From Squalus acanthias (lineage: Eukaryota), in contig CM059432.1 in assembly GCA_030390025.1 (NCBI GenBank), positions 18,106,001 to 18,170,000 of the forward strand: 64,000 bases of DNA, read 5' to 3'. Under the pieces are notes generated by a model, which did not search any database, was not told where the DNA came from, and saw only the letters and a program-made list of their open reading frames with translations. This document shows, piece after piece, positions 7,027 through 61,414 of the stretch. A program made the translations under genes and the position numbers. The stretch's first letter is position 1. Each line of letters opens with the position of its first letter.

Positions 7027-7485
7027 TGTGGTTAGCAGTCTCTCCTCGGAGTCAGAAGGTTGTGGGTTCAAGTCCCACTCCAGGGACTTGAGCAAAAAAA
7101 ATCTAGGCTGACACTCCAGTGCAGTGCTGAAGGAGTGCTGCACTGTCAGAGGTGCTGTCTTTCAGATGAGACATTAAACCGAGGCCCTGTCTGTACTCTC
7201 AGGTGGACGTATAAGATCCCGTGGCACTATTTCGAAGAAGAGCAGGGGAGTTATCCCCGGTGTCCTGGCCAATATTTATCCCTCAATCAACATAACAAAA
7301 ACAGATTATCTGGTCATTATCACATTGCTGTTTGTGGGAGCTTGCTGTGCACAAATTAACTGCTGCGTTTCCTACATTACAACAGTGACTACACTCCAAA
7401 AAGTACTTCATTGGCTGTAAAGCACTTTGAGACTTCCGGTGGTCGTGAAAGGCGCTATATAAATCCAAGTCTTTCTTTCTTTCTT
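7027..7485 (+). mobile_element. Deu-domain SINE with L2-derived tail
   Basis: GGGTTCAAGTCCC B box, GATGAGACATTAAACCGAGGCCC core, GGCGCTATATAAAT tail with (TTTC)n. Confidence 0.8.
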
Positions 7486-24021: not shown

Positions 24022-24448
24022 CATAGAAACATAGAAACATAGAATCTAGGAGCAGGAGTAGGCCATTCGGCCCGTCGAGCCTGCTCCGCCATTCAATACG
24101 ATCATGGCTGATCATCCAAATCCAGTACCCTGTCCCTGCTTTAATCCCCACAGTACACATATCCCACCCTACCCCCGTAACCCCACGTATTTAATTCCCC
24201 CTAACATATCCCATCCTATCCCCATAACCCCACATATTTAATCCCCCCTAACACTAAGGGTCAATTTATCATAGCCAAATCAACCTAACCCACACATTTT
24301 TGGACTGTGGGAGGAAACCGGAGCACCCGGAGGAAACCCACGCAGACACGGGGAGAATGTGCAAACTCCACACAGACAGTCACCCGAGGTCAGATTCGAA
24401 CCCGGGTCTCTGGCGCTGTGAGGCACCAGTGCTAACCACTATGCCACC
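24022..24448 (-). mobile_element. HE1-type V-SINE with CR1-derived tail
   Basis: tRNA-like head, V domain GTGGAGTTTGCACATTCTCCCCGTGTCTGCGTGGGTTTCCTCCGGGTGCTCCGG, (TTTCTATG)n tail. Confidence 0.9.
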
Positions 24449-36368: not shown

Positions 36369-36815
36369 TGTCAGCTGTGGCTCTGTGGGTAGCACACTCG
36401 CCTCGGAGTCAGAAGGTTGTGGGTTCAAAGTCCCACTCCAGGGACTTGAACACATAAAGCTAGGCTGACACTCCCAGTGCAGTGCTGAGGGAGTGCTGCA
36501 CTGTCGGAGGTGCCGTCTTTCGGATGAGACGTTAAACTGAGGCCCCGTCTGCTCTCTCAAGTGGACGTAAAAGTTCCCATGGCACTATTTTGAAGAAAGA
36601 GCAGGGGGAGTTATCCCCGGTGTCCTGGCCAATATTTATCCCTCAATCAACATAACAAAAACAGATTATCAGGTCATTATCACATTGCTGTTTGTGGGAG
36701 CTTGCTGTGTGCAAATTGTTTCCCACATTACAACAGTGACTGCACTTCAAAAGTGCTTCATTGGCTGTAAAGCGCTTTGGGATGTCCTGAGGTTGTGAAA
36801 GGAGCTATATAAATG
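36369..36815 (+). mobile_element. Full-length Deu-domain SINE
   Basis: A/B boxes, GGATGAGACGTTAAAC core, L2-type tail. Confidence 0.85.
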
Positions 36816-37430
36816 CATAGGATTACATTGGATATACGGCACAGAAACATGCCATTCGGCCCAACCAGTCCATGCCGTCGTTTATGCTCCACTCGAGCCT
36901 CCTCCCGTCTTTCCTCATCTAAATCTATCAGCATAACCCTCTATTTCCTTCTCCCTCATATGTTTGTCTAGCCTCCCCTTAAATGCATCTATACTGTTCG
37001 CTTCAATCACTCCCTGTGGTAGCGAGTTCCACATTCTCACCACTCTTTGGGTAAAGAAGTTTCTTCTGAATTCCCTATTGGATTTCTTGGTGACTATCTT
37101 ATATTGATGGGCTCTAGTTATGCTCTTCCCCACAAGTGGAAACACTCTCTCTGTATCCACTCTATCAAAATGTTTTCATAATTTTAAAGACCTCTATTAG
37201 GTCACCCCTCAGCCTTATTTTTTCAAGAGAAAAGAGACCCAGCCCGTTCATCCTTTCCTGATATGTAGATCATCGCATTTCTGGTATCATCCTTGTAAAT
37301 CTTCTCTGCACTCTTTCCAGTGCCTGTATATCCTTTTTATAATATGGTGACCAGAACTGTACGCAGTACTCTAAGTGTGATCTAACCAAGGTTCGATACA
37401 GGTTTAGCATAACTTCCCTACTTTTCACTT
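36816..37430 (-). mobile_element. CR1 3' fragment
   Basis: RRNFFTQRVVRMWNSLP. Confidence 0.85.
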
Positions 37431-43084: not shown

Positions 43085-43522
43085 AAAAAAGAAAGACTTG
43101 CATTTATATAGTGCCTTTCACGACCACCGGACGTCCCAAAGCGCTTTACAGCCAATGAAGTACTTTTTGAAGTGTAGTCACCGCTATAATGTAGGAAACG
43201 CGGCAACTAATTTGTACATAGCAAGCTCCCACAAACAGCAATGTGATAATGACCAGATCATCTGTTTTTTAGTTGTGTTGATTGAGGGATAAATATTGGC
43301 CAGGACACCGGGGTTAACTACTCTGCTCTTCTTCGAAATAGTGCCATACGAAATAGTGCAATACATCCACCTGAAAGAGCAGACGGGGCCTCGGTTTAAC
43401 GTCTCATCCAAAAGATGGCACCTCCGATAGTGCAGCGCTCCCTCAGCACTGCACTGAAGTGTCAGCCTAGATTTTTGTGCTCAAGTCTCTTGAGTGGGAC
43501 TTGAACCCACAACCTTCTGAGG
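43085..43522 (-). mobile_element. Deu-SINE body; its 5' head lies at 56700-56736, split off by the provirus
   Basis: Left flank ends ...GAACCCACAACCTTCTGAGG; right flank continues GAGGTGAGGGTGCTACCAACTGAGCCACGGCTGACAC. Confidence 0.88.
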
Positions 43523-45214
43523 TGTAAAGTTTCGCAATTATCGCGATTCGAAATAACAAGATAGAAGCAGATTCGGTTGGTCAGTTTATTTAAACGAAAT
43601 GCTGTCCTGTTATAAAGGACACAGAAGCCTATAAAATGGCCGCCGAGCATCGTGGCAGAAGCTTCCAGAATTACAGTGGGCAGACAAGATGGCGTTCGAA
43701 TATACATTTCAATATAAGACGGGATCATGCTCGATGGGCACTGATGGAGACAGGATGCAACCTGTTTGCATTCGAAACAATAGCAAAAGATGTGAGTGCT
43801 GGAATCGTTTTCCATGCACAAGTAAGGACCATTGTACTGGGCAATCGAAGGCCCATCCAGACACATCAATACACAAATACCCCCACGGCTCTACAATGAG
43901 AGAGCCATTCTCGGGTGATTAAACCAGTATTCGGGGGCCCCCAAAACCCAGCCAGGGAGGCTCCTAGCCGGTCCAACAATGAGGAAAACATTAACGGGTA
44001 GTTGGCCAGTTTCAGGTGCTACCGAAACCCGTTAAGGAAAGAATCGCCCCATGCTGGGAGTTTTGAGCGCCAATATTTCACAAAGGACAAACATTAAGAT
44101 TTGAGCGGGAGATAAGGGGACACAGCACTATAACTATAGACAACAAATGTCCATCGCTCTCTTATTCGCTTGATTCGTGCTCTTATCTCTGCGGACTCTT
44201 GACTCGGGCTGAACTCTGCTGGACGAGCAGCCTTCTGTGTTTTCTCTGGACTCTGTTGACCCTGGACTTTCAGCCGCACTGGACGGTTATTCGAATGTTG
44301 GGTGAAGCTCAATTGGAACGAGTCGCCCCGACGAAGGCCAATGACCGGGTGCACCATCCCGAGAGTCGGTAAACGGTGTTTGGACCCGAAGGCCCAACAA
44401 GACGAGACGAAATGACAAGAGAAGAAGAAGAATCCACGTGCCACCGCGGTCAGTAAACCCCGACCGCGCCCGAAAATATATGACCCATTTCTTGAACTCT
44501 ATAGGTTACTGCACGAACCGGTCAAAGACTCTTCTTTGAATTCTACCGGCAACTGGTGTCGGTACAGGAAGACTTTTCTTTGAGTTCTACAGCCGGGCCC
44601 GAGTTCTGTCGAGTTCTTCATGACAACGGGGAGCCCAGCCTGCTTGTCGCAGCAGTGAAAATAAACAAGTGGGGTACAGAGACCCCTCCAAACACGTGAC
44701 AGTCAGGCGCTGCAGCGAAACGAGCCGAGTGCCTCACTTTAAAATTCTCCGAAGTATCACGAGTGGTGAGCATGTTTCCCGATCCTACAAATCTAGATGT
44801 AGTGTAGGTATTGATAGGGGAGGGTGGTTTTATTAAGGATAAAGTATAATGTGTTCCCCTTTTTACGATGTGCCGTGCGTTCTTCATTACCATAGACCAA
44901 GCTTTATGAATGTATGTATACTTGTACTCTCGTTAATTTGCGCCTATGACATGTACTTCATGATCTTGGACGCTATGCAATAAAGATTTCCATTTCGTAC
45001 TATTCAACCGGGTCTATTTTGAGTTTTTCTCTGCATTACTGCTCTCGCACCTAAGTCCAGTGTTAGAACCGTAAGGGTGAGTGGGTCGGACCACTCACAG
45101 GTGCTTATTGCAACAAGGCTGGCTGGAGACCAGAGCAAGCAATAGTATTAGGCAACGAAGGCCTAACCTCGCACCAGCACCATCTGCGATACAAGCACGA
45201 CAAAACCCCTTACA
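43523..45214 (+). repeat. 5' LTR (1692 bp)
   Basis: TGTAA...TTACA termini; direct repeat of 55008-56699; AATAAA at 44979-44984. Confidence 0.97.
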
Positions 45215-45219
45215 GAAAA

Positions 45220-45237
45220 TAGCGACCACGGCAGGAC
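45220..45237 (+). promoter_or_regulatory. Primer-binding site, tRNA-Arg-like (TGG changed to TAG)
   Basis: TAGCGACCACGGCAGGAC, 5 nt after the LTR; resembles the complement of the vertebrate tRNA-Arg(TCG) 3' end as recalled. Confidence 0.7.
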
Positions 45238-45290
45238 ATTGGCAGCGAGAGAGTAATGTTTTAGACCCTGGTGTGAATAGGCGAAATGTG

Positions 45291-47042
45291 ATGGATGAGA
45301 GGGTAGCCGACTATGTGTTTGGGAAGGTTAACTTAACCAAAAGGTGGATAAGTGACCTACTGATGGATAAGCGTCCGCTAGACGCAGCCATCAAATGGAC
45401 AGGCAGTAAAGAGCATAAGAAGTCGGTGGAGAAAGCGGACTGGCTGATGTGCTACAAGAAGCAAGTCGAACTTTCGGACCAGGTCATTGTGGCACAGGCA
45501 GCTCAGATCAGGGATTTGGAAGTTGAGATGGAGGAAAAGATCACGGGAGGACAGAAACTCATTGCATCCTTGAACGCGTTACATCAGGAACGCCAGATAG
45601 TAGCCAACCACCATGAGGCTAAAATTGAGTACCTAGAGTGTCAGGTCACAGAAGCGAAACTAAACGAGGGTAGGATTAGAGAGTGGTGTGCCCGCCTAGC
45701 TAACCAGATAAAAGCCCAGGAAGAAAGCTTGAAGGGAGTTAGGGCGGCATATAAGATGGCCCTCGAGGATAGGCATGAGGGAGCCAACCACAGTGTTTGC
45801 CAGAAGGAGATAGGGAACCTAAGAGAGGCTCTGAATAAGGCAAACGGCTTGGTGTGCCTCATCAGCCCGTCAGAAAATCAGCCACAGGTGGGTAGGGAAT
45901 TCCCAAAATCCCTACCAGACAAAGCAGAGGAGGTATTGGCCACTGTGCCCTCCGCGCCTCCCAGCTATTCGGCAACCTGGGTAAGGGAGGAAGTGGTGGA
46001 AATAGAAAAGGAGGTTCCCGAGCTAGGACAATCCCCGGAGGTAGAGTCGAGCCCGGGACCGATGTGTCCGCTCCGAGGTCACAAGAGAGGCCCGAACGCA
46101 GCCAATGGGGATGCCGGGGATGTCCTGAACCAGCTGGTATTGCCCCACAGCTCACACCAGCTGAGAGCAATGATTAGCCATGTACGGAAGCTGTCCGAAT
46201 CAGACGACCCTTCCGTACACTTTAGGGAGGTAGAACAGACCGCAGCAATTAATGGCTGCGACGATGTGGAAAAGACCAAAATGTTGCTGTTCTCTTTAGA
46301 TAGCTCGATCCTTCAGTGTCTCTCAGACGAGAGCAAGAAGGGAAATAAAACCTATGGGGAGTTACGGGACGAGGTCCTAGAAGTGTTAGGGGCGGATGAC
46401 GAAGGTCCGTTCGTCAGATTGGGTCAGACCGTACAGATGGAGGGAGAACCCCCGAAGGTTTTCGCCGACAGGCAGTGGCCAGTATACCAGCGTAGCTGCC
46501 CAGGTGCGCCAGCGCGCACCTATCTGGACGGTGCCGGTCTAACTCATTGGCTCAGGTGTTTAGTAGCCAACAGTTTGCCAGCCGTCAGGGAGCAGGCCAA
46601 AGCGTGGTTTGATCCCACTAACCCCGCCACAACAGAGGAGTCGGTCCTAAATCGACTCACGATAGGGTATCGGAACACTAGGAGCACGGGAGCGCGTCCC
46701 CTTAAGGGAAAGGTGCATGAGGCACGGCCCGCAGCCCCGGCTCAAAAGGAGTGGCATCAGGAGGGTAACCGCGCCACACAAGCCAGTGGTGCTTGCTACG
46801 GGTGCGGGAAGACAGGTCACTGGCGTAAGAACTGTAGGAACCCCTGGAAGGACCCCAGGGATAAAAATCCCGCAGCCTGAACCCAAGCGCCTGTCTCTGA
46901 GAGAGGAGCTGGTGTGCCTATCCATCCCGATGCGATAGAATCAATGTTGGGAGCTATGCGGTCCCTTATGATTTCGCAAGGAAGGGTGGCAGTCGCTACC
47001 GGCCCCACAGATGTCACGACCCCGTCCACCAGTACCCAATGA
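45291..47042 (+). pseudogene. gag: gag (coiled coil, PSAPPSY, capsid-like region, CCHC); internal TGA at 46878-46880, presumed natural stop at 47040-47042
   Basis: CYGCGKTGHWRKNC knuckle; first in-frame ATG after the PBS at 45291; frame stays open between the two TGAs. Confidence 0.85.
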
Positions 47043-50000
47043 CTAGAGCCCGCGCAGCCCGTTTACCTGTGTCCGCTCAGCTATGGTGCGTGGAAAAGAC
47101 CCCTGGTTGAGATGGAGGTAGAGAAGCAGAAGGGTAGTTATTTGTTGGACACGGGAGCTTCATGCACCGTGATTCATACGGATAGCCCCTTTGACTCACC
47201 ACTGTCTACCAAGGTCCCATTCACATTAGCGGGGTTCACGGGAAAAGAGCAGGCTGGCGCGTTCTCCATTCCGCTCTCCATTCATTTAGGAGCACTCCAC
47301 ACCACATGGAAGTGCATACTGATGAAATGGCAAGAGGGGGGTGGCAGAGGTATCCTCGGATCGGATCTCCTATCGGAACACGGGATCCTCGTGGACCTTA
47401 GGAATCACTGTCTCTGGGGAGCCAAGGGTGGGAAAGGCAAGGTAGTTGTTATCCCGGGGAAGGAAGGTAAAGGGGCCCTGTGTACCATGAAGCCATCCGG
47501 AGGTTACGACCTCGGGCTTATGGTCGCGGATGTCCCAACGGACATGCAAACGTACGTGTCAGATAATATGCACGCGTTTGCAACCCACAAGCATGATTGT
47601 GGGAGGGTTACCGGGTTTGAGGTCAGCGTAGATGGGGACCCCATGACCCGGCCCCAGAAACAGTATAACTTCCCCAAAGAAGCAGAACCCGATATGGAGA
47701 CAGCAATGTCCTCCTTGGTGCAGCAGGGCGTGTTGAGGCCGATAGCCACACACGTGAACTCCCCATTATGGCCGGTGAGGAAGCCGGATAATTCGTGGAG
47801 GGCCACGGTGGACTACAGAGTCCTTAACAGTAACATCCCCGCCTGCGCGCCCACAGTAGCAGCAGTTGCTGACCTAATAGGGAGTATCCCAGCGTCCGCG
47901 ACCACGTTCACGGTGCTGGATATCTCGAACGGATTTTGGTCCATCCCGCTGCGGCGAGAGGACCAGTACAAGTTTGCCTTTACTTTCAAAGGACAACAGT
48001 ACACATGGAACTGTTTGCCACAGGGTTTCCACAACAGCCCCAGTATTTTCCATCCGTGTATGGCAGGAAGTTTAAAGGAGTTTAGTCAGCCCAATCAGAT
48101 AGTGCAGTACGTGGATGATTTGCTCCTGTTCACAGACTCAAGGGAGGAGCATGGACCACTGCTAGCCGAGTTATTGGAGCTGCTAGGGAGAAAGGGTTTT
48201 AAAGTTAACCCTAAGAAAGCACGTATCGGTCAGCAGGAAGTAAAATTCCTGGGTCTGACCATTCGCGCTGGGGAAAGAGCCATAGATAAGGCTAGGAGGG
48301 AGTTGGTGCAGGAGTTACCGATTCCCAACACCATAACGGGTGTGAGGTCCTTTCTGGGACTGATCGGTTACTGTAGAGACTTCATCGAGGACTATGCGGC
48401 CACAGCAGCTCCGCTGCTCCGACTCCTCCATAAGGGAGTGGAGTGGTCTTGGGACGAGGGTTGTCAGGCAGCATTCGAGAAGTTAAAAAGGGATCTGCAG
48501 ACCGCGCCAGCTTTAGGGGCCATAGATGGGGGGAAGGAGTTTTTCCTGGAGGTAGCTGCCAGCAGAGACAGCTTGAGCGCCGTGCTGCTCCAAGAGCGTC
48601 ACGGCAAGCTGAGGCCGGTTGTCTATTCGTCCAGGGTGTTAACGGATGTGGAGAGGAGTTTCTCCAATTGCGAAAGGCATCTTTTAGCCACGCATTGGGC
48701 TGTGAAAAGATCAGCGATCTTCACAGGGCTCTCTCCCATCACTCTCCTCACCCATCACACACCAACTAAGATGCTTCTAGATGGGAGGATTAAGGATGGG
48801 ACCGTAAGCAGCGCTCGCATTGCGCGCTGGACCCTTCTCCTTTCCCAGATGGATCTTAGAGTTAAAGATCTTTGCGAGCCCAGGCTTGCGGCCAACTTGG
48901 TATACCCCGGAACAGCCCACCGGTGTTCGGTGGAAGGGGTGTGGGAGGTCAACATAGGTTTGTGGGCCGGGATACATCCCATAAGTCGCGAGATTTATGT
49001 TGATGGTTCCAGCACAGTGTCCGCTGGCGAATGACTCACAGGGTGTGGAGTTTATGACCCTGCGGCAAACCTTGCCCTGGCAATTAAACTCCCCAGCACC
49101 ATGAGTGCGCAGCAGGCTGAGCTGTCTGCGGTGGCGTATGTCGTTACCCACCCAGAAATTTTCCCAACCCCATACACGATTTGTTCGGACAGTATGTTTA
49201 CGTGCAATTCGTGTACGGAATACCTGGCCATTTGGTCCCGCCGTGGTTACACCTCCGCGGACGGGCGACCTTTAACGGTGAAGCCCTTGCTGGAAAAGAT
49301 CCTAGCAGCAGTAGGGGAGGAAGGGGAGATTTTCATCCATAAGGTGAAGGCTCACTCCTCCACAGGGCCCTGTGGGGAGGGCAACCAGCAGGCGGATGCG
49401 CTAGCCAGGGAGGGTGCCCGTAATGGCATTTTCTGGGACCCCTATGGACCCGGACCCGTGGCAGCGATCCAAGGTAGGGACGGGAATCCCGGGAACACCA
49501 GGGTAGCACTGCCCCTAGACCTTAAGACCGTCCAGAACCAGGATCCCGCCCTAAAAGCAGTTCTCAGAGCGATTACTGAGGGCAAGCAGGTAGAGGGCCC
49601 GTACAGTACGGCAACCCTCTCTGTTAAAGAAGGCATGCTGTTCCGCGAGGAACAGTGGGTTGTGCCGCAGCAGCACAGGAGGGAATTCCTCCAGTTGGCT
49701 CATGAGGGGCCGGGGGCAGGGCACCCCGGGCCCGAGGTTACCTGGCAACGGGTAGAGCAGGCGGGATGGTGGCCGGGACTCAGGGAGCAGGTCCGCGAGT
49801 TCTGTGCAAACTGTCTTGTGTGCGCTGCAAACAACCCAGACCCCCAGAAAAGGAAAGTGCACATGGGGCACATCAGGAGGGTGGAGGGACCATGGCAGTC
49901 AATACAGATCGATTACATAGGGCCCCTGCCCACCACCCAGGGAGGCTACAAATACTGCCTCGTCTTGGTGGATGTGTTTTCCAAATGGGTAGAAGCCTTC

Positions 50001-50967
50001 CCCTGTAGAACAGCTACGGCGCTGGGTACTGCGAAAATCTTGGTCCGGGAAGTGTTCTCGCGGTGGGGGCTCCCCCGTTTCGTGGAGTCAGACCAAGGGA
50101 GTCATTTCACTGGCCAGGTGATGCAGAACACCCTCATGCTTTTGGGCATTGAAGGGAAGTGGCACGTAGCGCACAATCCCCAGTCATCCGGAATTGTTGA
50201 ACGCATGAACTGGACCCTGAAGGAGAAGCTGAGGAAAGAGACTATGAACTCGCCCCAAAAATGGGCTGAGGTTCCGCCTCTAGTCCTCATGGGGATCCGG
50301 GCCAGTCAGTCGAAAAGTACGGGGTACTCCCCGTACGAGGTGATGACTGGGAGGATCATGCGAACCCCCACCCATGTACTAGCGCCGGTGCTCACTGAGG
50401 ATCAGCTCCAAGAGGTGAAAAGGGACAAGTTTGTCCCGACCCTCTTGGAGCGCCTGAAGCAGGTTTATGAGCAGGCGGCTGGGAACATGGGAAGACAGCA
50501 CCAGGGCAATCGCCTGTTGCTGGAACCCCGCAAGAAGCAGGAGTGGGAAGTTGGAGATCAGGTCATGGTTAGGAACTATGCCAGAGTAGGGAGTTTGGAA
50601 CAACTGTATATGGGGCCCTACAGTATTGTAGATAAAGCGAGTCCCATGGTGTACGCCGTAAAGGTACTTCGGCGCACGAAATGGTTCCACATTAACCAGT
50701 GCAAGTTGTATAAGCCGGGTGCACAAGGGCCAATCACAGGGGCCAAAACTGCGAGTGGGGACTCGCAGCCCCGGGTAGGACCGCAGGGCACACAGACCGG
50801 TAAAGCAGCCTGCTTGAGGGGAGAGGACATTCTAGAAAAGTGTAGGATCTTTTCTTGGTGTTGGGATTCAGATGAGGAAGAGCTCGAGGAGCTCGACCAA
50901 GGTAGTGACCCGATCGGAGAGGTGCTGGGGTCGGAGGACGAAAGTTTCGTCCTCGACTCAAGCTCAG

Positions 50968-51323
50968 GGGAGATAGGGACTGCGAGTGGAGTTCCACACA
51001 GGGTGGAGCCAGAAACTGCAGATCCCGAGCCCAGGGGGGCGGAGCTAGGGGAGACGGAGCCAGCGGCTGTGGTAGGACCACAGGTCGTGATGGTGGAAGT
51101 CTCGGTACCCGGTCCGTCGGCCCTGGAAGTCTTGCCCTTGGGGGAGGTAGGGATTGCGAGTGGAGGACCACATACTGGGCCAAGTAGGGTGGAGCCAGAA
51201 ACTGCAAATCCCAAGTTCAGGGGGGCGGAGCCAGGGGAGACGGAGCCAGCGGCTGTGGTGGGACCACAGGCCGCAACGGTGGAAGTCTTGGTTCCTGGTC
51301 CGTCGGCCCTGGAGATCTTGCCC
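50968..51323 (+). repeat. Two in-frame repeats of about 175-185 bp in the integrase C-terminal tail
   Basis: GEIGTASG...PGPSALEVLP / GEVGIASG...PGPSALEILP. Confidence 0.9.
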
Positions 51324-51338
51324 AAAGTAGCCCTCCGT

Positions 51339-51794
51339 GGGCAACACGGTGGCATAGTGGTTAGCACTGGTGCCTCACAGCGCCAGAGACCCGGGTTCGA
51401 ATCTGGCCTCGGGTGACTGTCTGTGTGGAGTTTGCACATTCTCCCCGTGTCTGCGTGGGTTTCCTCCGGGTGCTCCGGTTTCCTCCCACAGTCCAAAAAT
51501 GTGCGGGTTAGGTGATTTGGCTATGATAAATTGACCCTTAGTGTTAGGGGGGATTAAATATGTGGGGTTACAGGGATAGGATGGGATATGTTAGGGGGAA
51601 TTAAATACGTGGGGTTACGGGGATAGGGTGGGATATGTGTCGGTGCAGGCTCGATGGGGATTCTGTGTGAGGGGGCAGGGACAGGGTACTGGATTTGGAT
51701 GATCAGCCATGATCGTATTGAATGGTGGAGCAGGCTCGACGGGCCGAATGGCCTACTCCTGCTCCTAGTTTCTATGTTTTCTATGTTTCTATGT
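51339..51794 (+). mobile_element. HE1-type V-SINE inserted into the pol tail
   Basis: Near-identical to 24022-24448; (TTTCTATG)n tail. Confidence 0.92.
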
Positions 51795-52260
51795 AGGTTA
51801 AGTCGGACACCCCAGCCCAGCCCAGGAAGTCATGGCCGAATCCCCCGTGTACCCCCAGGCGTAAGTTCAAGGTCAAGGCAGCCCAGGGAGATCCCAGTCC
51901 CAGCGCAGCGACGACAGGCTGCGGCAGATCAAAGGAAGGGGTCAGTGCCCTCCCACCACTGGGAAAAGCTCGTGGCAGCCTTCACAGAATTTAGGTAGGC
52001 CGTCCTGGGAATGGGCGGCGCTGTACAGTTTAAGTTTATAAGTTTAAGTTTAAGTTTTGTAAGTTTGGTAAGTTTGTAGTTTAATTTTATAAGTAAATGG
52101 TAAAATGATGGGAGTTAGTGATAGGAATAGTTAAAGTCTATCCAGCATACATGTCGTTATACGTGAGATGAGGTCAAGGGACCCGCTCACCCTTCACAAA
52201 AGCCAGAGACTCTTGGGAGGCTGGCTACATCATTTTATCTGATCACAGGAACCAGGAAAG

Positions 52261-54610
52261 ATGGAACGGATTCTGATAGTGCTCGCAACGATCGGATATG
52301 GATTGGCCTATCGGGGCCTCACCAAGGATGTCGTTGTGTTTGGTTGCTCCGGGGACACGGCCCCCATCGCGACGGATGGGACCGGGGAGCGAAAGGCTGA
52401 GGAGACCGCCACTTATTTCCACAAGGGAAGGTGGCCGGGATGGCTGGGAACGAATTCGACGGAATACTCCAGCGCATCCGGATTTGCCTACAAAGAGACT
52501 TCTTTACTGTGCCCCAGAGTGAGGATCATTGCACCCAGAATCAGCGTCACCGTCGGCAAAAGGATTTGTTTGACATGCAATGGGAAGGTCCCATTGAGCC
52601 GATGGTGGTGGTTACGGAAATTAAGCAAGACTATGAGAAATTCCTCGGTTGAGTGGGAACGATTGGGTAACAATACCCATCGGACAATTACGGGGACTAA
52701 CGGACAATTGAAAGTCTGTTGGGACAAATGGTGGGAACCGGATGAGGGAATATATGTTTGTATGTGGGGATCGAAGTACGTTTGCCCCAAGGGTATATCC
52801 ATATTTTTCGTACACCAGTGGCAGGATAACGGGAAAGGGATGAGGTGGGATGTTAGCACCAAGGGGTGCGGAGCTCCATTCTCCCCGATCCCGGTAAACG
52901 CCACTGAACTCATCACGCGCCCACGCAAGTCTCCGCCCGCGATTCCGGTGGTTTTGGCTCAGGAGGAAGGGTGCCCTAAAACCACTAAGGGGACCGGGAA
53001 TGGTTTGGTACTGGTCCCAACAGACCAGATACTATTTCAGGGGGTACATTACGCGGTGGCTTCGGTGATTCTAAATCTCACCGAGGTGCGTTTACCAGAG
53101 TGGTGTCCCAAAGAAACGGAACAATTGTACCAGGTCCTGTTGACAAACATGTTCAGACAATTCTACGAGTTTGATTTTGCAGAGATTGACAAAAAAAGCT
53201 TGTACACCACACCACACGAAGTTTTGGGTCAGGTGGGGAGACAAAGAAGGGGTGTTGTGAACGATGTGTTCACTGCTTTTAATACAGGAACATCTGTGGT
53301 CAACGCTCTAGACAACGTGGAGCTGCAGACCCAGATCAATGGTTTAAAAACACAATTGAAAAGCATCCTCACAAGCGAAAACAAGGTAGTAGGGTCTGAG
53401 TTACACGAGGACCAGGCCATGACACTACACTTAAAAGAGATTATAGCAGAGCTGGAGAAGCATGCGAGAACGGTAAATGCCCTGATCAGGGAAGATCGAA
53501 ATGCATCCGATCAAGCTGCGCAGAACGAGGTGTGCGTACTATACGGGGCGTGGTTACTGGGCGAGGGCCGCAGTAATTTGGAGGATTTAAAACAAGGTTT
53601 GGTCCCGTCCTGGATAAGTAACAAACACCTGCAGGTGCTCCAACCTTTTCAGAACGCATTAAGCCCGTGCCAGTTCAGGCTAGCCTCAGAGGCATACCCA
53701 GTCCCCGTGGACTGCGGACGGTCAAACCATACTATCATGGGTATAGTACTACGTATGCCGGTGTTGGGCAACACAGCAAAGCCCGCCCCGGTGTATCGGG
53801 TGGAGAACATTGTTGTCATTCAGGGGGGAGCCCACATTCGCTACGCAGCGGTCCCACCTTACGTCATCCGCTGGGAGCAAACGATGACAGGTACCGACCT
53901 ACCGGGTTGTCGTGGCCGGGGAGCACACATAATACTGTGTCCCCAGCACTTGAATGCCTTTCTAACACCACAATGCGGGTTCAGAACGGCTGGCGCCAAG
54001 CCCATGAATTGCACCATGGAGGCAATGACACAAGATCATGTGCCTCCGCAGGTGGCATACATAGGGGGTGGAACATATTGCGTTACCACTGCAGCGCAAC
54101 ACTACCAGCATGGAAACCACAGCCGGTGTCCGGTGAGTGACAGCAGTTTCTGTTTTAAACCCAGGGCTGAAGTTCAAGTGGCACAACAGCGAATTGTCCC
54201 GATCCCTGAACCATCCTGTTCATCTTAATGTAAAAGAGAATTTCACCGACTTGCAGCGATTCGTCGCGCGTTTCGGATACATCATTCCCCCTCTCCCTGT
54301 ACACCTCACCAAACTTTTGAAAGCCGTTGCGGTATCACAAAAACATTTTTACACCCTGGAACAAAAGACTGTAGAAATAGGGACAGAAATTTTGGACATA
54401 GTAATCCCACCGTGGTGGGATCTGTTCACTAATATTGAAGTTCCTTCATGGATCAGGATAGCCTCCCACATTTTGGTAGTGTGCCAAGTTATAATTGTAG
54501 TGTACCTATTGGTCGTGCACTGCAAAAGAGGCAAACGCCTCACAAAGCAGGAGAACACAGGGGAGTGGAGAGAACGTTACGTGCGCGTGAACGAAGAGAG
54601 TACTGCGTAA
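52261..54610 (+). pseudogene. env: env: signal peptide, Ig-like domain, class I fusion (F-like) ectodomain, TM; one frameshift near 54215
   Basis: Hydrophobic N-terminus; RQRR|GVVNDVF cleavage site and fusion peptide; heptad repeat; Cys-rich region; TM ILVVCQVIIVVYLLVV in the 54137-54610 frame. Confidence 0.88.
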
Positions 54611-54995
54611 ACGGCCAGGATGACGCCGCTCCATTTTTACCATGTGTGTTTTTGTAATTGATTATTGGTTATGAATATGTGTAACTAAGTTTTTGGAACT
54701 TTGTATTTTAAAAGAGTTGTCTTGATTATTTTTCCTTGTATAATAAAAACGTGCATATACAGGTGGTGCGAGAGGCATCGGCCTGTTGCACCTGGAAGGC
54801 GTATTCGCAATGTAAGTTTAAAGGCAATACTGCCTACGGTTTGTCCAAGTTTAGACAATATAATTTCCCTGGGAAATGAGGACGGCACGGAGGCCATAGA
54901 TAGTTTAAGTTAAGGGAGTGTTTGGATGTGGAGAATCGGGATAATTTTGCTCACCACCACTTTTAATTGATACGATAAGCGGAGTTATTCGCATC

Positions 54996-55007
54996 AACAG
55001 GAGGGAC
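54996..55007 (+). promoter_or_regulatory. Polypurine tract
   Basis: AACAGGAGGGAC directly before the 3' LTR. Confidence 0.7.
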
Positions 55008-56699
55008 TGTAAAGTTTCGCAATTATCGCGATTCGAAATAACAAGATAGAAGCAGATTCGGTTGATCAGTTTATTTAAACGAAATGCTGTCCTGATATAA
55101 AGGACACAGAAGCCTGTAAAATGGCCGCCGAGCATCGTGGCAGAAGCTTCCAGAATTACAGTGGGCAGACAAGATGGCGTTCGAATATACATTTCAATAT
55201 AAGACGGGATCATGCTCGATGGGCACTGATGGAGACAGGATGCAACCTGTTTGCATTCGAAACAATAGCAAAAGATGTGAGTGCTGGAATCGTTTTCCAT
55301 GCACAAGTAAGGACCATTGTACTGGGCAATCGAAGGCCCATTCAGACACATCAATACACAAATACCCCCACGGCTCTACAATGAGAGAGCCATTCTCGGG
55401 TGATTAAACCAGTATTCGGGGGCCCCCAAAACCCAGCCAGGGAGGCTCCTAGCCGGTCCAACAATGAGGAAAACATTAACGGGTAGTTGGCCAGTTTCAG
55501 GTGCTACCGAAACCCGTTAAGGAAAGAATCGCCCCATGCTGGGAGTTTTGAGCGCCAATATTTCACAAAGGACAAACATTAAGATTTGAGCAGGAGATAA
55601 GGGGACACAGCACTATAACTATAGACAACAAATGTCCATCGCTCTCTTATTCGCTTGATTCGTGCTCTTATCTCTGCGGACTCTTGACTCGGGCTGAACT
55701 CTGCTGGACGAGCAGCCTTCTGTGTTTTCTCTGGACTCTGTTGACTCTGGACTTTCAGCCACACTGGACGGTTATTTGAATGTTGGGTGGAGCTCAATTG
55801 GAACGAGTCGCCCCGATGAAGGCCAGTGACCGGGTGCACCATCCCGAGAGTCGGTAAACGGTGTTTGGACCCGAAGGCCCAACAAGACGAGACGAAATGA
55901 CAAGAGAAGAAGAAGAATCCACGTGCCGCCGCGGTCAGTAAACCCCGACCGCGCCCGAAAATATACGACCCATTTCTTGAACTCTACAGGTTACTGCACG
56001 AACCGGTCAAAGACTCTTCTTTGAATTCTACCGGCAACTGGTGTCGGTACAGGAAGACTTTTCTTTGAGTTCTACAGCCGGGCCCGAGTGCTGTCGAGTT
56101 CTTCATGACAACGGGGAGCCCAGCCTGCTTGTCGCAGCAGCGAAAATAAACAAGTGGGGTACAGAGACCCCTCCAAACACGTGACAGTCAGGCGCTGCAG
56201 CGAAACGAGCCGAGTGCCTCACTTTAAAATTCTCCGAAGTATCACGAGTGGTGAGCATGTTTCCCGATCCTACAAATCTAGATGTAGTGTAGGTATTGAT
56301 AGGGGAGGGTGGTTTTATTAAGGATAAAGTATAATGTGTTCCCCTTTTTACGATGTGCCGTGCGTTCTTCATTACCATAGACCAAGCTTTATGAATGTAT
56401 GTATACTTGTACTCTCGTTAATTTGCGCCTATGACATGTACTTCATGATCTTGGACGCTATGCAATAAAGATTTCCATTTCGTACTATTCAACCGGGTCT
56501 ATTTTGAGTTTTTCTCTGCATTACTGCTCTCGCACCTAAGTCCAGTGTTAGAACCGTAAGGGCGAGTGGGTTGAACCACTCACAGGTGCTTATTGCAACA
56601 AGGCTGGCCGGAGACCAGAGCAAGCAATAGTATTAGGCAACGAAGGCCTAACCTCGCACCAGCACCGTCTGCGATACAAGCACGACAAAACCCCTTACA
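55008..56699 (+). repeat. 3' LTR (1692 bp)
   Basis: Same length as the 5' LTR, about 21 substitutions, no indels seen. Confidence 0.97.
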
Positions 56700-58604
56700 G
56701 AGGTGAGGGTGCTACCAACTGAGCCACGGCTGACACTAATTCACAGTTTTTCTATTTAATCTCACCCTGTTTATTTGCATGTTTCTAAAATCCAATTTTT
56801 CTCATTGATTTACAAGCAAAATCCTGCTACAAGAACACCTTTTCCCAGTATAAGAGAAATTTCTAATAATAGATCCACGTCTCCCATTTCCTGGAACTAC
56901 AGGTGTCGCTTAGGATGGAAACAAAATGCTTGCTGTCACTCAATTAAGGATGCATTCATCATATAGTTCTTTATTTTCAGCTTTTAAATTAAAATTTTAG
57001 GAGTTTTTCAGCTTTTTATTCGCAAAAGATTAAATCCAGTTAAAAGTCAGCTGAAAAATTCAATGGGATGTATTTCCTCAGGACTTCTCATATTCCACTG
57101 CTGTAAACAGTGTTAGCGCCGAATATCCGCCAAAGTAATGGTGGTGGACTGGGATAATCGCTGAGTAAATTCATCCCCAATTTTACAAAGAATTCAACAA
57201 ACCTTTCGCATAATTATCCACTGAGGGCTGTATTTTTACTCCATGTGTTGATTTTAGTGAAAATGTAGATCTGAGTGACAACTTTATACTGAGGGAACAA
57301 CCTTATACTCAAAAAGCAAAATGCTGCGGATGCTGGAAATAAATCCAATTATTATGAAATAGGAACAGAAAATGCTGGAAACACTCTGGAGGTCAGGCAG
57401 CATCTGTCCAGAGAGAAACAGAGTTAAGGGCCCCGTAAATATCGCTCGGAGTGGGAGGGAAGAGTTATGAATGGGAAACCTGGAAGTACGGATTTCCCGA
57501 CCGTCCTGCGGTTTTTAACTGGATTCAGCCCTTCTCGCCTCCTTTTACCTGCCGGGTTTCCTGAGGCCTGGGGAACCCAACCGACATCAGTTAAAAATAG
57601 AAATCTTGTTAAAATGGAGGCTCGCAGCCTTCTTAAAAGGTTTTACCGACCGACCCGCCTCTTGAGAGCAGATTGGTCACCCGCCTCCATTAATGCCAGA
57701 ATTGGGCGGGCTCGAGGCAGGTTGGGGTCTTGTTTCAAATTTTTTAAATTTTAACTTCTCATCCAACCCAAACCCACCCATTTTTGGGGGTTAAAATTAC
57801 CCCAATGTTTCAGGTTGATGACCAATGAGATATCTGGTGGTATCAGCCTTGAAAGTATACTTTGAGATACTAATGTATCAATGATTAATGCACCAAAATG
57901 AAATTCCTTTCCCTGCTATTCTAAAAGAAGCATTAATCTGTTTAATCTATGTAAACTCTATGTAATTCTAAAAAAAAAGTGGGCTACGACCTCTGTCAAA
58001 ATAATGAAGAAACCTCTTGAATGATCATTAGCCAGTGTCTCACGGCATAATTGTTTGGTCTTTAGTTTTATTTGTTTCATATTGTAGTTTAGGTTATACA
58101 CATAATTTATTACTTTTTGATGGTGTACTGGAGGAAGAGATGAGAGAAAACTGGACAGATCTCACCAGATGATATCTTCATATGCAAATGAGAGACACAA
58201 ATTTGTGAGACAAATCTTGTGAGACTTGAGCACAACATCCAGGCAAACACTTCAGTGCAGTACTGAGGGAGGTGCCGTCTTTGGATGAGTCGTTGAGGCC
58301 CCATCTGCCCTCTCAGGTGGATGTAAAAGATCTCATGGCACTATTAATTAAAAACAAAGAGCATTCATCTTGAAATAAGTTTGAAACGTGATACTACCAT
58401 GATCTGCTCTGTGAGCAGAGTTGAAGTAGATCAGGTGCACTTACTCATAGTAAATCTGACCACAGATTAAGTAATTAAAGAGTTTGCCTTTGGCAGCACA
58501 TCTTTTCATCACATTTTTCAGTCTTCGGAGCAATCACACCTCAAAGTGTCAAACTTCAGGGCATCATACCTCATAGTGTCATACGTTTATCGATCAAAAA
58601 TCCG

Positions 58605-58915
58605 TCTTTCGAATGAGACGTTAAACCGAGGCCCCATCTGCCCTCTCAGGTGGACGTAAAAGATCCCATTGCACTATTCGAAGAAGGGCAGGGGTGTCCT
58701 GTCCAATATTTAACCCTCAACCCACATCACTAAAACATCGTCTGGTCATTATCTCATTACTACTGGTTGGACCTTGCTGTGCATAAATTGGCTGCCGTCT
58801 TTCCTCCATTACAATGGTGATTACCCTTCAAAAGTACTTCATTGGCTGTAAAGCATGTTGGAACATCCTGGAGCCGTGAAAGACGCTATATAAATGCAAG
58901 TTATTTCTTTCTTTT
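58605..58915 (+). mobile_element. Deu-SINE 3' part (a further fragment at about 58220-58345)
   Basis: GAATGAGACGTTAAACCGAGGCCCC core and L2-type tail. Confidence 0.75.
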
Positions 58916-58946: not shown

Positions 58947-61414
58947 GGGCTAAAAATTTGGGGGCTTTACGGCACCCGTTACCCGCAAAAAATCACAAAA
59001 ATCTTTCTCCAGCTGGCGGCGGGTCTGGCAGTGTCCTCGGTTTTCCTTGGCCCAGCAGCGCTGCCGGTAAGATGCATCGCCCTGCAAATTAAAATGAGGG
59101 AGCAATGACTGCGCGCCGACTTAACGTCAGCACGGCGAACTTGGACCTTTGCGTTGTGTTCAGCGCTGGCTCCTAAACTCGCCCTGTAAACGCAGCGTGC
59201 AAGCAGACTCACAGAGGCACTGTCAGCAGCTCTTAAAGGGACACACACATCTTTCAGGTAAGTTTGCATTGAAGCTTTTGGACTGGTTTTTTTTTATTTT
59301 ACTCAAGTAGCGGCTTGCTGCAATAGATGTTAAAAGTTTTTTAAGTGTGTAGGGTGTGCTGCTGGATGCTTGCAAGGCCTCAGATAGTAAATGAAGGCCT
59401 CTGAGAAGACAGAAAATGCTGCCAATACTCAGCTGGTCAGGCAACATCCGTGGAGAGGGAAACAGAGTTCATGTCTCAGGTTAAGATGCTGCCTGACCTG
59501 CTGAGTATTTCCAGCATTTTATGTTGTCATTTCATATTTACAGCATCCGCTCGCAGAGGGAAGAGGAAGACGCAGAAGGGGAAGAAACAGAAGATGAGGA
59601 AGCAGAAGAGGAGGAAGCAGAAGATGAGGAAGCAGAAGAGGAGGAGGCAGAAGAGGAGGCAGAAGAGGAGGAGGCAGAAGAGGAGGAAGCAGACGAGGAG
59701 GAGGCAGAAGAGGAGGAGGCAGAAGAGGAGGAGGCAGAAGAGGAGGAGGCAGAAGAGGAGGAGGCAGAAGAGGAGGAGGCAGAAGAGGAGGAAGCGGAAG
59801 AGGAGGAGGCAGAAGAGGAGGACGCAGAAGAGGAGGAAGCAGACGAGGAGGAGGCAGAAGAGGAGGAAGCAGAAGAGGAGGAAGCAGAAGAGGAGGAGGC
59901 AGAAGAGGAGGAAGCAGAAGAGGAGGAAGCAGAAGAGGAGGAGGCAGAAGAGGAGGAAGCAGAAGAGGAGGAAGCAGAAGAGGAGGAGGCAGAAGGAAGG
60001 ATGCAACCCAGACAGCCTCTATCTGGCTGGGATATCAGGGATGGAATCAGCCGCCTGCGGTCCCAGTGACCACAACCCCAATTCCCTTTTCAACTTTAGT
60101 CCCATATCTTACCTTCCCTCTGTTACTGACCATCACAGCGTCCTCTTGGCCACAATGCTGAAATGAAAGCCACCACAAAGCAAACTTTCCAATCCAACTT
60201 TATACATCTATCTATCCAATATGACATCAAGAAATCAACTCATCACCCTTATGCATTCTCTTAGTGACTGTCTTGTATGGGCCTTTGCCTATCCTACTCA
60301 TGTCACACAGGTGGCTGGGAGTGTCAAATCAAATGACAGTGTTTCTTCTTCTTCTTCACTCTCCTCTCCCTCTTCTTGGTCAAGCACTGGCTGGGCAGGC
60401 TGCATTTCTTGGGTGTGTGAAATGAGGAAGGCACAAGGGTGGAGTTGTGTGAGGGGAGGGTGGGAAAGCAGAGGTGCATGCCAGAAGGAGGATAACGTAT
60501 GAGGATACTCAGCATCTTGTATCCTTTCAGCCCCTGGCCAAGGGCTCAACCGTGCCCCTGCCAAGAAGGGCCTGCACTGTCTCCTCCAAGGGGGTGAGGT
60601 GAGGTGAGGGAGATGTGCCTCATCATTGGTACAGATTGTTGGTAGGTGAGTGATTGGGGGAGGGGAGGTCATGCATTGAGCAGTGTGTGAGGCTAGTGGT
60701 GCAGTTGGTAGGAGACGGCTTTTGAAGATGCAGTCACTGACCTTGACCAGTGGTCTGAAGTCATGAAGCTTCTTTGGGCACTGGAGCCAGGTGGTGTGGG
60801 CGACACTGCTGGCAGTGATGCCCTCGGTGATGTGGTCCCACATCAATCTTTCTGGAGAGCCTCCTGACCACTGTGGGTAGAGGACCCCTCTTGCAGTGTT
60901 GACCCCCTGCACAAAGCTGGAGTGCTGCGTGCGAGACCCTGACGGCCCCTTCCCTGGCTTGCCATTTGTGTTAGTGCTGAAGCATGTTTCCCATTTTTTG
61001 AGATTCGGAAGGTAATTCAGCTTTAAGTGCTGAAGACTCCCATTTGGGACTTCTTTTTAATGTTTATTTTTTTTTTAAAAGGCAGTGAGGGCTGAAAACT
61101 GCCTTTTTTCACTTCATTTTAATTTTTATTAGTTCAGAAGGCATTGCCCTTTTAATTTCCCACTATTCTGAGCGAACTCGATAGCCTTGCTACCAGAGGC
61201 TGGAATGCCGCTTCAGGACAGGAACTTCGACTCCCATGCCTGCGCTAACGCCACCAGGAGGGCGTTACACGGTAAGTTAGCGCTGGGCTAAAAACCTTTA
61301 GCCCCTAGTGCGAATTTTTCCCTGGTAGCACTTCGTCCATTTTCAACGGCCGTTAACCCGAGTTGCTGGTGACACTGGACACTCTCGTGGTGACCTCATA
61401 TTTCCCCCCCCCCG
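58947..61414. mobile_element. Internally deleted Harbinger element
   Basis: Minus-strand Myb remnant WLQCPKKLHDF (60298-60965) convergent with an acidic transposase-like C-terminus (59550-60069); ends uncertain. Confidence 0.55.
59557..59995 (+). repeat. 15-bp purine minisatellite (GAGGAGGARGCAGAA)n encoding EEEAE
   Basis: About 29 units visible directly. Confidence 0.95.

Follow-up and report, generated by a model that had tools for sequence, protein, structure and literature searches.

A putative UGA-CUAG readthrough signal at the gag-pol junction of a deep-branching endogenous retrovirus in Squalus acanthias

Stop codons in the context UGA-CUA or UGA-CGG constitute the type II readthrough class of alphaviruses, coltiviruses and triatoviruses (PMC13517186 and PMC3159437, in the parts available), and UGA-CUAG directs efficient readthrough in four vertebrate genes (OPRK1, OPRL1, AQP4 and MAPK10), UGA-CUA alone giving 1.5% (available part of PMC4132726). 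Among retroviruses, a 2026 review lists UGA junctions in SSSV (UGAAGA), ZFERV (UGACGA) and RMEV (UGAAGU), none of them with CUA, and considers retroviral readthrough unverified outside the gammaretroviruses; the junction of XtERV-S is also TGA, its copy S2 reading TGA CAG. The window analyzed here, a stretch of 64,000 nucleotides of the Squalus acanthias genome (contig CM059432.1, positions 18,106,001 to 18,170,000), contains an endogenous retrovirus (ERV) in which a TGA followed by CTAG separates gag from pol. On sequence evidence, this UGA-CUAG is very probably the programmed gag-pol readthrough switch of the family, setting the ratio of Gag to Gag-Pol. A preliminary description of the locus had contrasted the junction with the UAG of gammaretroviruses, which is correct for that genus but too narrow for retroviruses at large, UGA having been published for SSSV, ZFERV, a toad ERV and XtERV-S.

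The gag-pol junction

45291..47039, + strand: gag, with a coiled-coil-like N-terminus, capsid, CCHC knuckle and a tail with a conserved helix-like segment
46878..46880, + strand: premature TGA, private to this copy
47037..47046, + strand: gag stop in the type II context CAA TGA CTA G, putative readthrough site
47043..51416, + strand: pro-pol, encoding protease (PR), reverse transcriptase (RT, with YVDD), tether, RNase H (RH) and integrase (IN), with an in-frame TGA at 49032-49034; its tail overlaps a host-repeat insertion

As the preliminary description stated, gag and pol occupy a single frame with CAA TGA CTA G between them (47037-47046, with the TGA at 47040-47042 in the gag frame), and the frame is open from there into the protease. 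The gag frame comprises a stop-to-stop open reading frame (ORF, 45081-46880) and 53 further codons up to the TGA at 47040, beyond which an in-frame ORF of 663 codons (47043-49034) encodes protease, RT and tether; between 45081 and 51416 the frame has stops at 46878, 47040, 49032 and 51414 only. Their common frame means that gag and pol cannot be linked by a simple frameshift. The junction stop precedes the catalytic Asp of the protease by 36 codons, versus 27-40 in the UAG-readthrough references, and the first in-frame AUG after it (47112) aligns to residue 13 of the HIV-1 protease, inside the fold. A start at this AUG would remove the N-terminal strand of the protease, which acts in dimer formation, and readthrough is therefore the likely route to Pol.

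The heptamer TGACTAG alone is not rare (8 occurrences in the window versus 7.24 +/- 2.38 expected), and what counts is the rarity of its position: CTAG directly behind the gag-end stop has a chance probability of p ~0.004 from base composition, with 14/1769 as the count over in-frame positions. The junction has the features of a type II (UGA-CUA/CGG) site, namely CUA after UGA, a long in-frame ORF without a usable start, and conservation among relatives, of the context as seen in contigs and of the position as seen in proteins.

Most ribosomes would terminate at the UGA and release Gag, and a small share, perhaps a few percent, would decode it with a near-cognate tRNA, presumably inserting Trp, Cys or Arg, and continue in frame to yield Gag-Pro-Pol. 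Slow termination may result from the CUAG 3' of the UGA, helped by 5' adenines, and the Gag:Pol ratio would be set as in gamma- and epsilonretroviruses, but by the type II signal of Beier and Grimm instead of UAG with a pseudoknot. The signal would have functioned in replicating ancestors of this defective copy and may function in intact copies. The earlier proposal that Pol is made by UGA readthrough is supported by the frame, the register, the context and a first AUG that cuts the protease, and is very likely correct; we infer the readthrough itself, its rate, the inserted residue and any role of the downstream hairpins.

Conservation, downstream structure and alternative explanations

The segment 46760-47260 was compared with DNA-type contigs of 4 of 22 runs, representing four organisms and four studies; variant statements from the contigs are based on 40 of the 71 difference rows, the weakly supported rows falling outside these. 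At 46878 another letter accounts for all depth in 4/4 runs (9, 16, 18 and 10 contigs), from which it follows that this TGA is private to the copy in the window, and homologous Gags cross the position and end in register with 47039, in agreement with the earlier suggestion of a later mutation. Difference rows number 25 at 46792-47023, none at 47024-47062, 6 at 47063-47108, none at 47109-47179 and 9 further on. The invariance expected of the junction was borne out in the rows used, none of them falling on it, and a divergent contig (run X10), unlike the window in its upstream sequence, carries TGA CTA G in exact register. Two further contigs (run X1) match from the A onward, and three pieces (X1, X7 and X10), with 16 differences in 90 bases, start aligning exactly at 47037.

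The named Gag relatives come from one skate and one catshark. Three of the four members of a skate Gag cluster (P0061, 61% identical over 579 columns) cross 46878 and end with Gln 12 residues after a VAVATG motif, in the register of 47039, the fourth being truncated early; more distant Gags (P0087, 49% identical; P0089/P0119, 38%) end 13 residues after the motif. The direct evidence covers the frame, the position, the conserved stop position and context, and the privacy of 46878. A search of longer proteins returned no fused Gag-Pol of the close family, which is weak evidence, and no copies of the family were found in viral, metagenome and prokaryote collections.

Folding of the 150 nucleotides (nt) downstream of the stop, proposed earlier as a check, gave two hairpins (z -2.41) that are not established as a stimulator:

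47062..47122, + strand: predicted hairpin 1, candidate stimulator, beginning 20 nt after the stop
47129..47192, + strand: predicted hairpin 2, candidate, covering the protease active-site codons

Hairpin 1 is ordinary (z -2.14 for 47055-47130 and -0.39 for 47040-47130) and not exceptional among folding windows of gag-pol; hairpin 2 reaches z -4.88, but this is the 8th lowest of 265 such windows. Differences at paired sites keep the pair in 6/8 cases, with transitions in 6/7 versus a 59% baseline (not significant), and no two-sided compensatory change in the hairpins was found among the difference rows used. A 12-bp pairing of the hairpin-1 loop with 47160-47171, noticed by eye, was dropped: every other copy has a different letter at 47086, and the rows listed contain no matching change on the partner side. 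Rfam gave no match, SECIS included, in 43400-56800 at E up to 1.

Several points weigh against assigning a readthrough function to the junction. Contigs collapse copies and lose rare variants, and 47109-47179 is as free of difference rows as the junction, which is not unique in being quiet. The skate and other Gags were compared as proteins alone, giving the end position only, not the codon or its context, and the gene model of a coelacanth relative (P0124) runs 264 residues into the protease without a stop. There appears to be no clear 3' stimulator, such an element being neither shown nor, on the readthrough model, needed. A CCHC-containing gag stands in frame before the protease in 13 of 49 loci, and these, the closest sequenced references whose frame holds a stop, use UAG in 13/13 cases, as do L005 and L007. 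In the available part of the lokiretrovirus supplement of PMC7947760, discussed below, 'gag-pol' occurs 14 times (10 mentions seen), corresponding to about seven fused consensuses.

Pol might instead be translated, as foamy-virus Pol is, from a subgenomic mRNA produced by splicing, with CTAG as the 3' splice acceptor and the TGA merely ending gag. CTAG does agree with YAG, foamy and class III viruses branch close to the element within an open polytomy, and C-rich sequence lies upstream of several lokiretrovirus junctions in the supplement as far as available. This route is quite improbable, since no U-rich tract precedes the AG (T fraction 0.12, pyrimidine fraction 0.5), splicing has no need for gag and pol to share a frame with a stop 4 nt before the acceptor, and the stop upstream of pol in foamy-like references does not end an in-frame CCHC gag; three of the lokiretrovirus junctions available, moreover, read TGA CTA A, the hexamer being kept where the AG is absent.

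The other stops of this copy could suggest that the junction TGA is one more disabling stop, inherited and spread through a recently amplified, helper-dependent family. Those other stops are not common to relatives, whereas Gags at 61%, 49% and 38% identity share the end position, a divergent relative retains the TGA CTA G context, and the stop is placed exactly at the gag/protease boundary, as in SnRV-like and WDSV-like references, so that this explanation is very unlikely.

It is also highly improbable that ribosomes reinitiate or start internally at AUG 47112 to make Pol, or that they start at the AUG overlapping the junction stop (ATGA) and then shift frame. The former AUG is in frame and a relative (P0001) is called from the equivalent Met, but it lies within a protease beta-strand (HIV-1 residue 13); the latter opens only ~23 codons in another frame. 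Orthoretroviral Pol is packaged through its fusion to Gag, and either start would produce a free Pol without that fusion. Decoding of the junction UGA as selenocysteine via a SECIS element, to which the hairpins downstream might point, is extremely unlikely given the blank Rfam search, the location of the codon in an unstructured linker instead of a catalytic site, and the unsuitability of efficient selenocysteine insertion for a Gag:Pol ratio switch.

The provirus and its placement

43523-56699 (13.2 kb), + strand: full-length provirus, with a pair of long terminal repeats (LTRs), 4-bp target duplication and gag-pro-pol-env
43523..45214, + strand: 5' LTR (TG...CA), 1692 bp, aligned with the 3' LTR
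45220..45237, + strand: primer-binding-site-like stretch, from its position after the 5' LTR; the homologous stretch is the start of skate Gag models
51348..51793, - strand: host repeat resembling a short interspersed element (SINE), between integrase and env, 92% identical to 24022-24448 and other dispersed copies
52261..54610, + strand: env, with an RxRR site and a hydrophobic C-terminal segment; frameshift near 54140-54228
55008..56699, + strand: 3' LTR, with a purine-rich tract upstream

The element has the attributes of Retroviridae: LTRs, a target duplication (43519-43522 and 56700-56703), gag-pro-pol-env, the order PR-RT-tether-RH-IN, and an RT inside the retrovirus clade. The primer-binding-site-like stretch, which may be of the tRNA-Arg type, belongs to a segment (45215-45290) that shares the gag frame, and skate gene models start within the homologous stretch. 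The helix-like segment that follows the knuckle (46920-46980) has counterparts close to the C-terminal end of the skate Gags and of the Gags of L001, L005 and Loki-Ofa. The LTRs differ at 21 of 1694 aligned bases, which with the shark rate assumed in PMC4422223 (available part) gives a very rough estimate of 28 million years for the insertion.

This copy is defective by the stops at 46878 (gag) and 49032 (RNase H), the host repeat at 51348-51793 and the env frameshift, and full-length Gag or Pol is beyond its capacity; the TGA in RNase H and the frameshift had escaped the preliminary description. The TGA at 49032 is followed by C, with strong predicted folding (z -4.56) in the window at 49030, and P0001 (84% identical) is open across it; this stop is probably decay and a negative control for readthrough sites. 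Searches of Pfam, PDB and Atlas gave no match to env, whose single-sequence structure model (pLDDT 32.6) is uninformative on a paramyxovirus-F-like fold. Within gag-pol, folding is strongest late in integrase (50290-50470, windows at z -7.4 and -5.2), where an element for env splicing or for packaging is conceivable. The long acidic tail after integrase contains a 138-nt segment in two copies that are 89% alike (51000-51323), adjoining the host-repeat insertion. The provirus sits within a short host repeat (43400-43522 and 56700-56740) related to 7100-7480, 36475-36817 and 58560-58900, and a tandem array with a 15-nt period is found at 59485-60082.

The RT trees unite the window element and P0001 with proteins from fish, frog and coelacanth (88/96); this group lies within the retrovirus branch (100/99 versus a gypsy-type outgroup) and apart from the gamma/epsilon, delta and foamy groups. 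The careful tree had 40 rows, with P0123 left out along with L007-L012, L018 and L035, which lacked a usable RT segment, and the RT trees contained no lokiretrovirus. L001, SnRV-like by its UAGGGC junction, falls in the same open polytomy without being the sister of the window element, and Gag similarity to it is confined to the knuckle (E 2e-4; the snakehead-retrovirus-related ERVs are clade Huo of PMC6001957, in the part available). Assignment to the gammaretroviruses or epsilonretroviruses was rejected, the RT not grouping there and the junction not being UAG-G, as was Spumaretrovirinae, the RT being apart from foamy viruses, gag having a CCHC knuckle and pol lying in frame behind the gag stop. 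Judged by its sequence, the element is a deep-branching retrovirus within this open polytomy.

Lokiretroviruses, a frog provirus and other known systems

In the available part of the supplement of PMC7947760, UGA-CUA ends 6/7 of the separately annotated lokiretrovirus gag genes among those listed (CUAG in Ofa, Pyo and Sau; CUAA in Bsp, Dcl and Lro; TAA in Tfu), and Loki-Cne, which has no annotated gag, has TGA CTA G before Pol. The annotated Pol is in frame, by eye, in 6/7 of the consensuses with UGA-CUA, that of Bsp starting in another frame. The TGA CTAG with which Loki-Lch begins, like 12 further matches in the supplement, does not end gag in frame and was left uncounted. A term search of the whole main text of PMC7947760 found no mention of readthrough, stop codon or termination, and this unremarked feature of published sequences is here brought to notice. 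Lokiretroviruses resemble the window element in gag-pol-env and in dual RNase H (tether and RH, common to all retroviruses and not diagnostic), but Loki-Ofa lacks a CCHC, carries CPFG in its RT and separates PR from RT by a long spacer, the window element having LPQG, a CCHC and no such spacer (by eye). According to the available part of PMC7947760, none of the six chondrichthyan genomes screened (0/6) contained a lokiretrovirus. By eye, TGA CTA G also marks the boundary between gag and protease in an XtERV-S-related class III provirus of the African bullfrog (available part of PMC8278194, supplement 5); this provirus differs in its ERV-L-like lineage, its defects and a frame slip before the protease, and XtERV-S itself has TGA CAG. 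The same UGA-CUA context in independent elements supports the readthrough interpretation.

It is possible, though doubtful, that deep-branching vertebrate retroviruses, together with the lokiretroviruses as their sister group, have long and widely relied on context-driven UGA-CUA readthrough to pass from gag to pol, perhaps as the ancestral state, later replaced in gammaretroviruses by UAG and a pseudoknot. This suggestion rests on the chondrichthyan family, seven fish lokiretrovirus consensuses and the frog class III provirus, the latter two from supplements available in part. Alternatively, the stop context that leaks most in vertebrates may have arisen repeatedly by convergence, and the UAG of SnRV-like and WDSV-like references, the many fused lokiretroviruses, P0124 without a stop and the ease with which a six-letter context is reached twice all tell against an ancestral switch.

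The type II sites of alphaviruses, coltiviruses and triatoviruses are alike in UGA-CUA and an in-frame downstream polymerase; here the site is a retroviral gag-pol junction, and the extended stem-loop of alphavirus-type sites has only a candidate counterpart. OPRK1, OPRL1, AQP4 and MAPK10 have the identical heptamer and require no 3' structure (PMC4132726, as far as available), but are cellular genes with short extensions, unlike a polyprotein switch. Gamma- and epsilonretroviruses and the snakehead retrovirus (type III, UAG-G) likewise have one frame with a stop between nucleocapsid knuckle and protease, all differing in UAG-G, to which the gammaretroviruses add a pseudoknot. In a degraded metagenome ERV (L008:2160-2168), gag and protease meet at TGA CGG, the second of the two type II contexts. 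SSSV, ZFERV, RMEV and XtERV-S share with the window element a UGA gag end in retroviruses of aquatic vertebrates, with readthrough presumed, but lack CUA and belong to other lineages.

No report of a retroviral UGA-CUA was found in the open literature searched, including PMC7947760, PMC9040795, PMC12440569, PMC6001957, PMC10435555 and two bioRxiv papers, subscription papers and Repbase being outside the search. UGA in retroviral junctions is already known; the CUA(G) context appears to be new and unreported. For annotation, treating the in-frame TGA as damage, or starting Pol at the first AUG, misjudges intact copies. Textbook retroviral readthrough consists of UAG with a pseudoknot, and a conserved UGA-CUAG offers, in a retrovirus that branches deeply, a short signal open to direct assay, tying retroviral recoding to the UGA-CUAG class of alphaviruses and cellular genes. 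The junction is thus a new form of a known readthrough mechanism, whose occurrence in lokiretroviruses and class III ERVs had gone unremarked.

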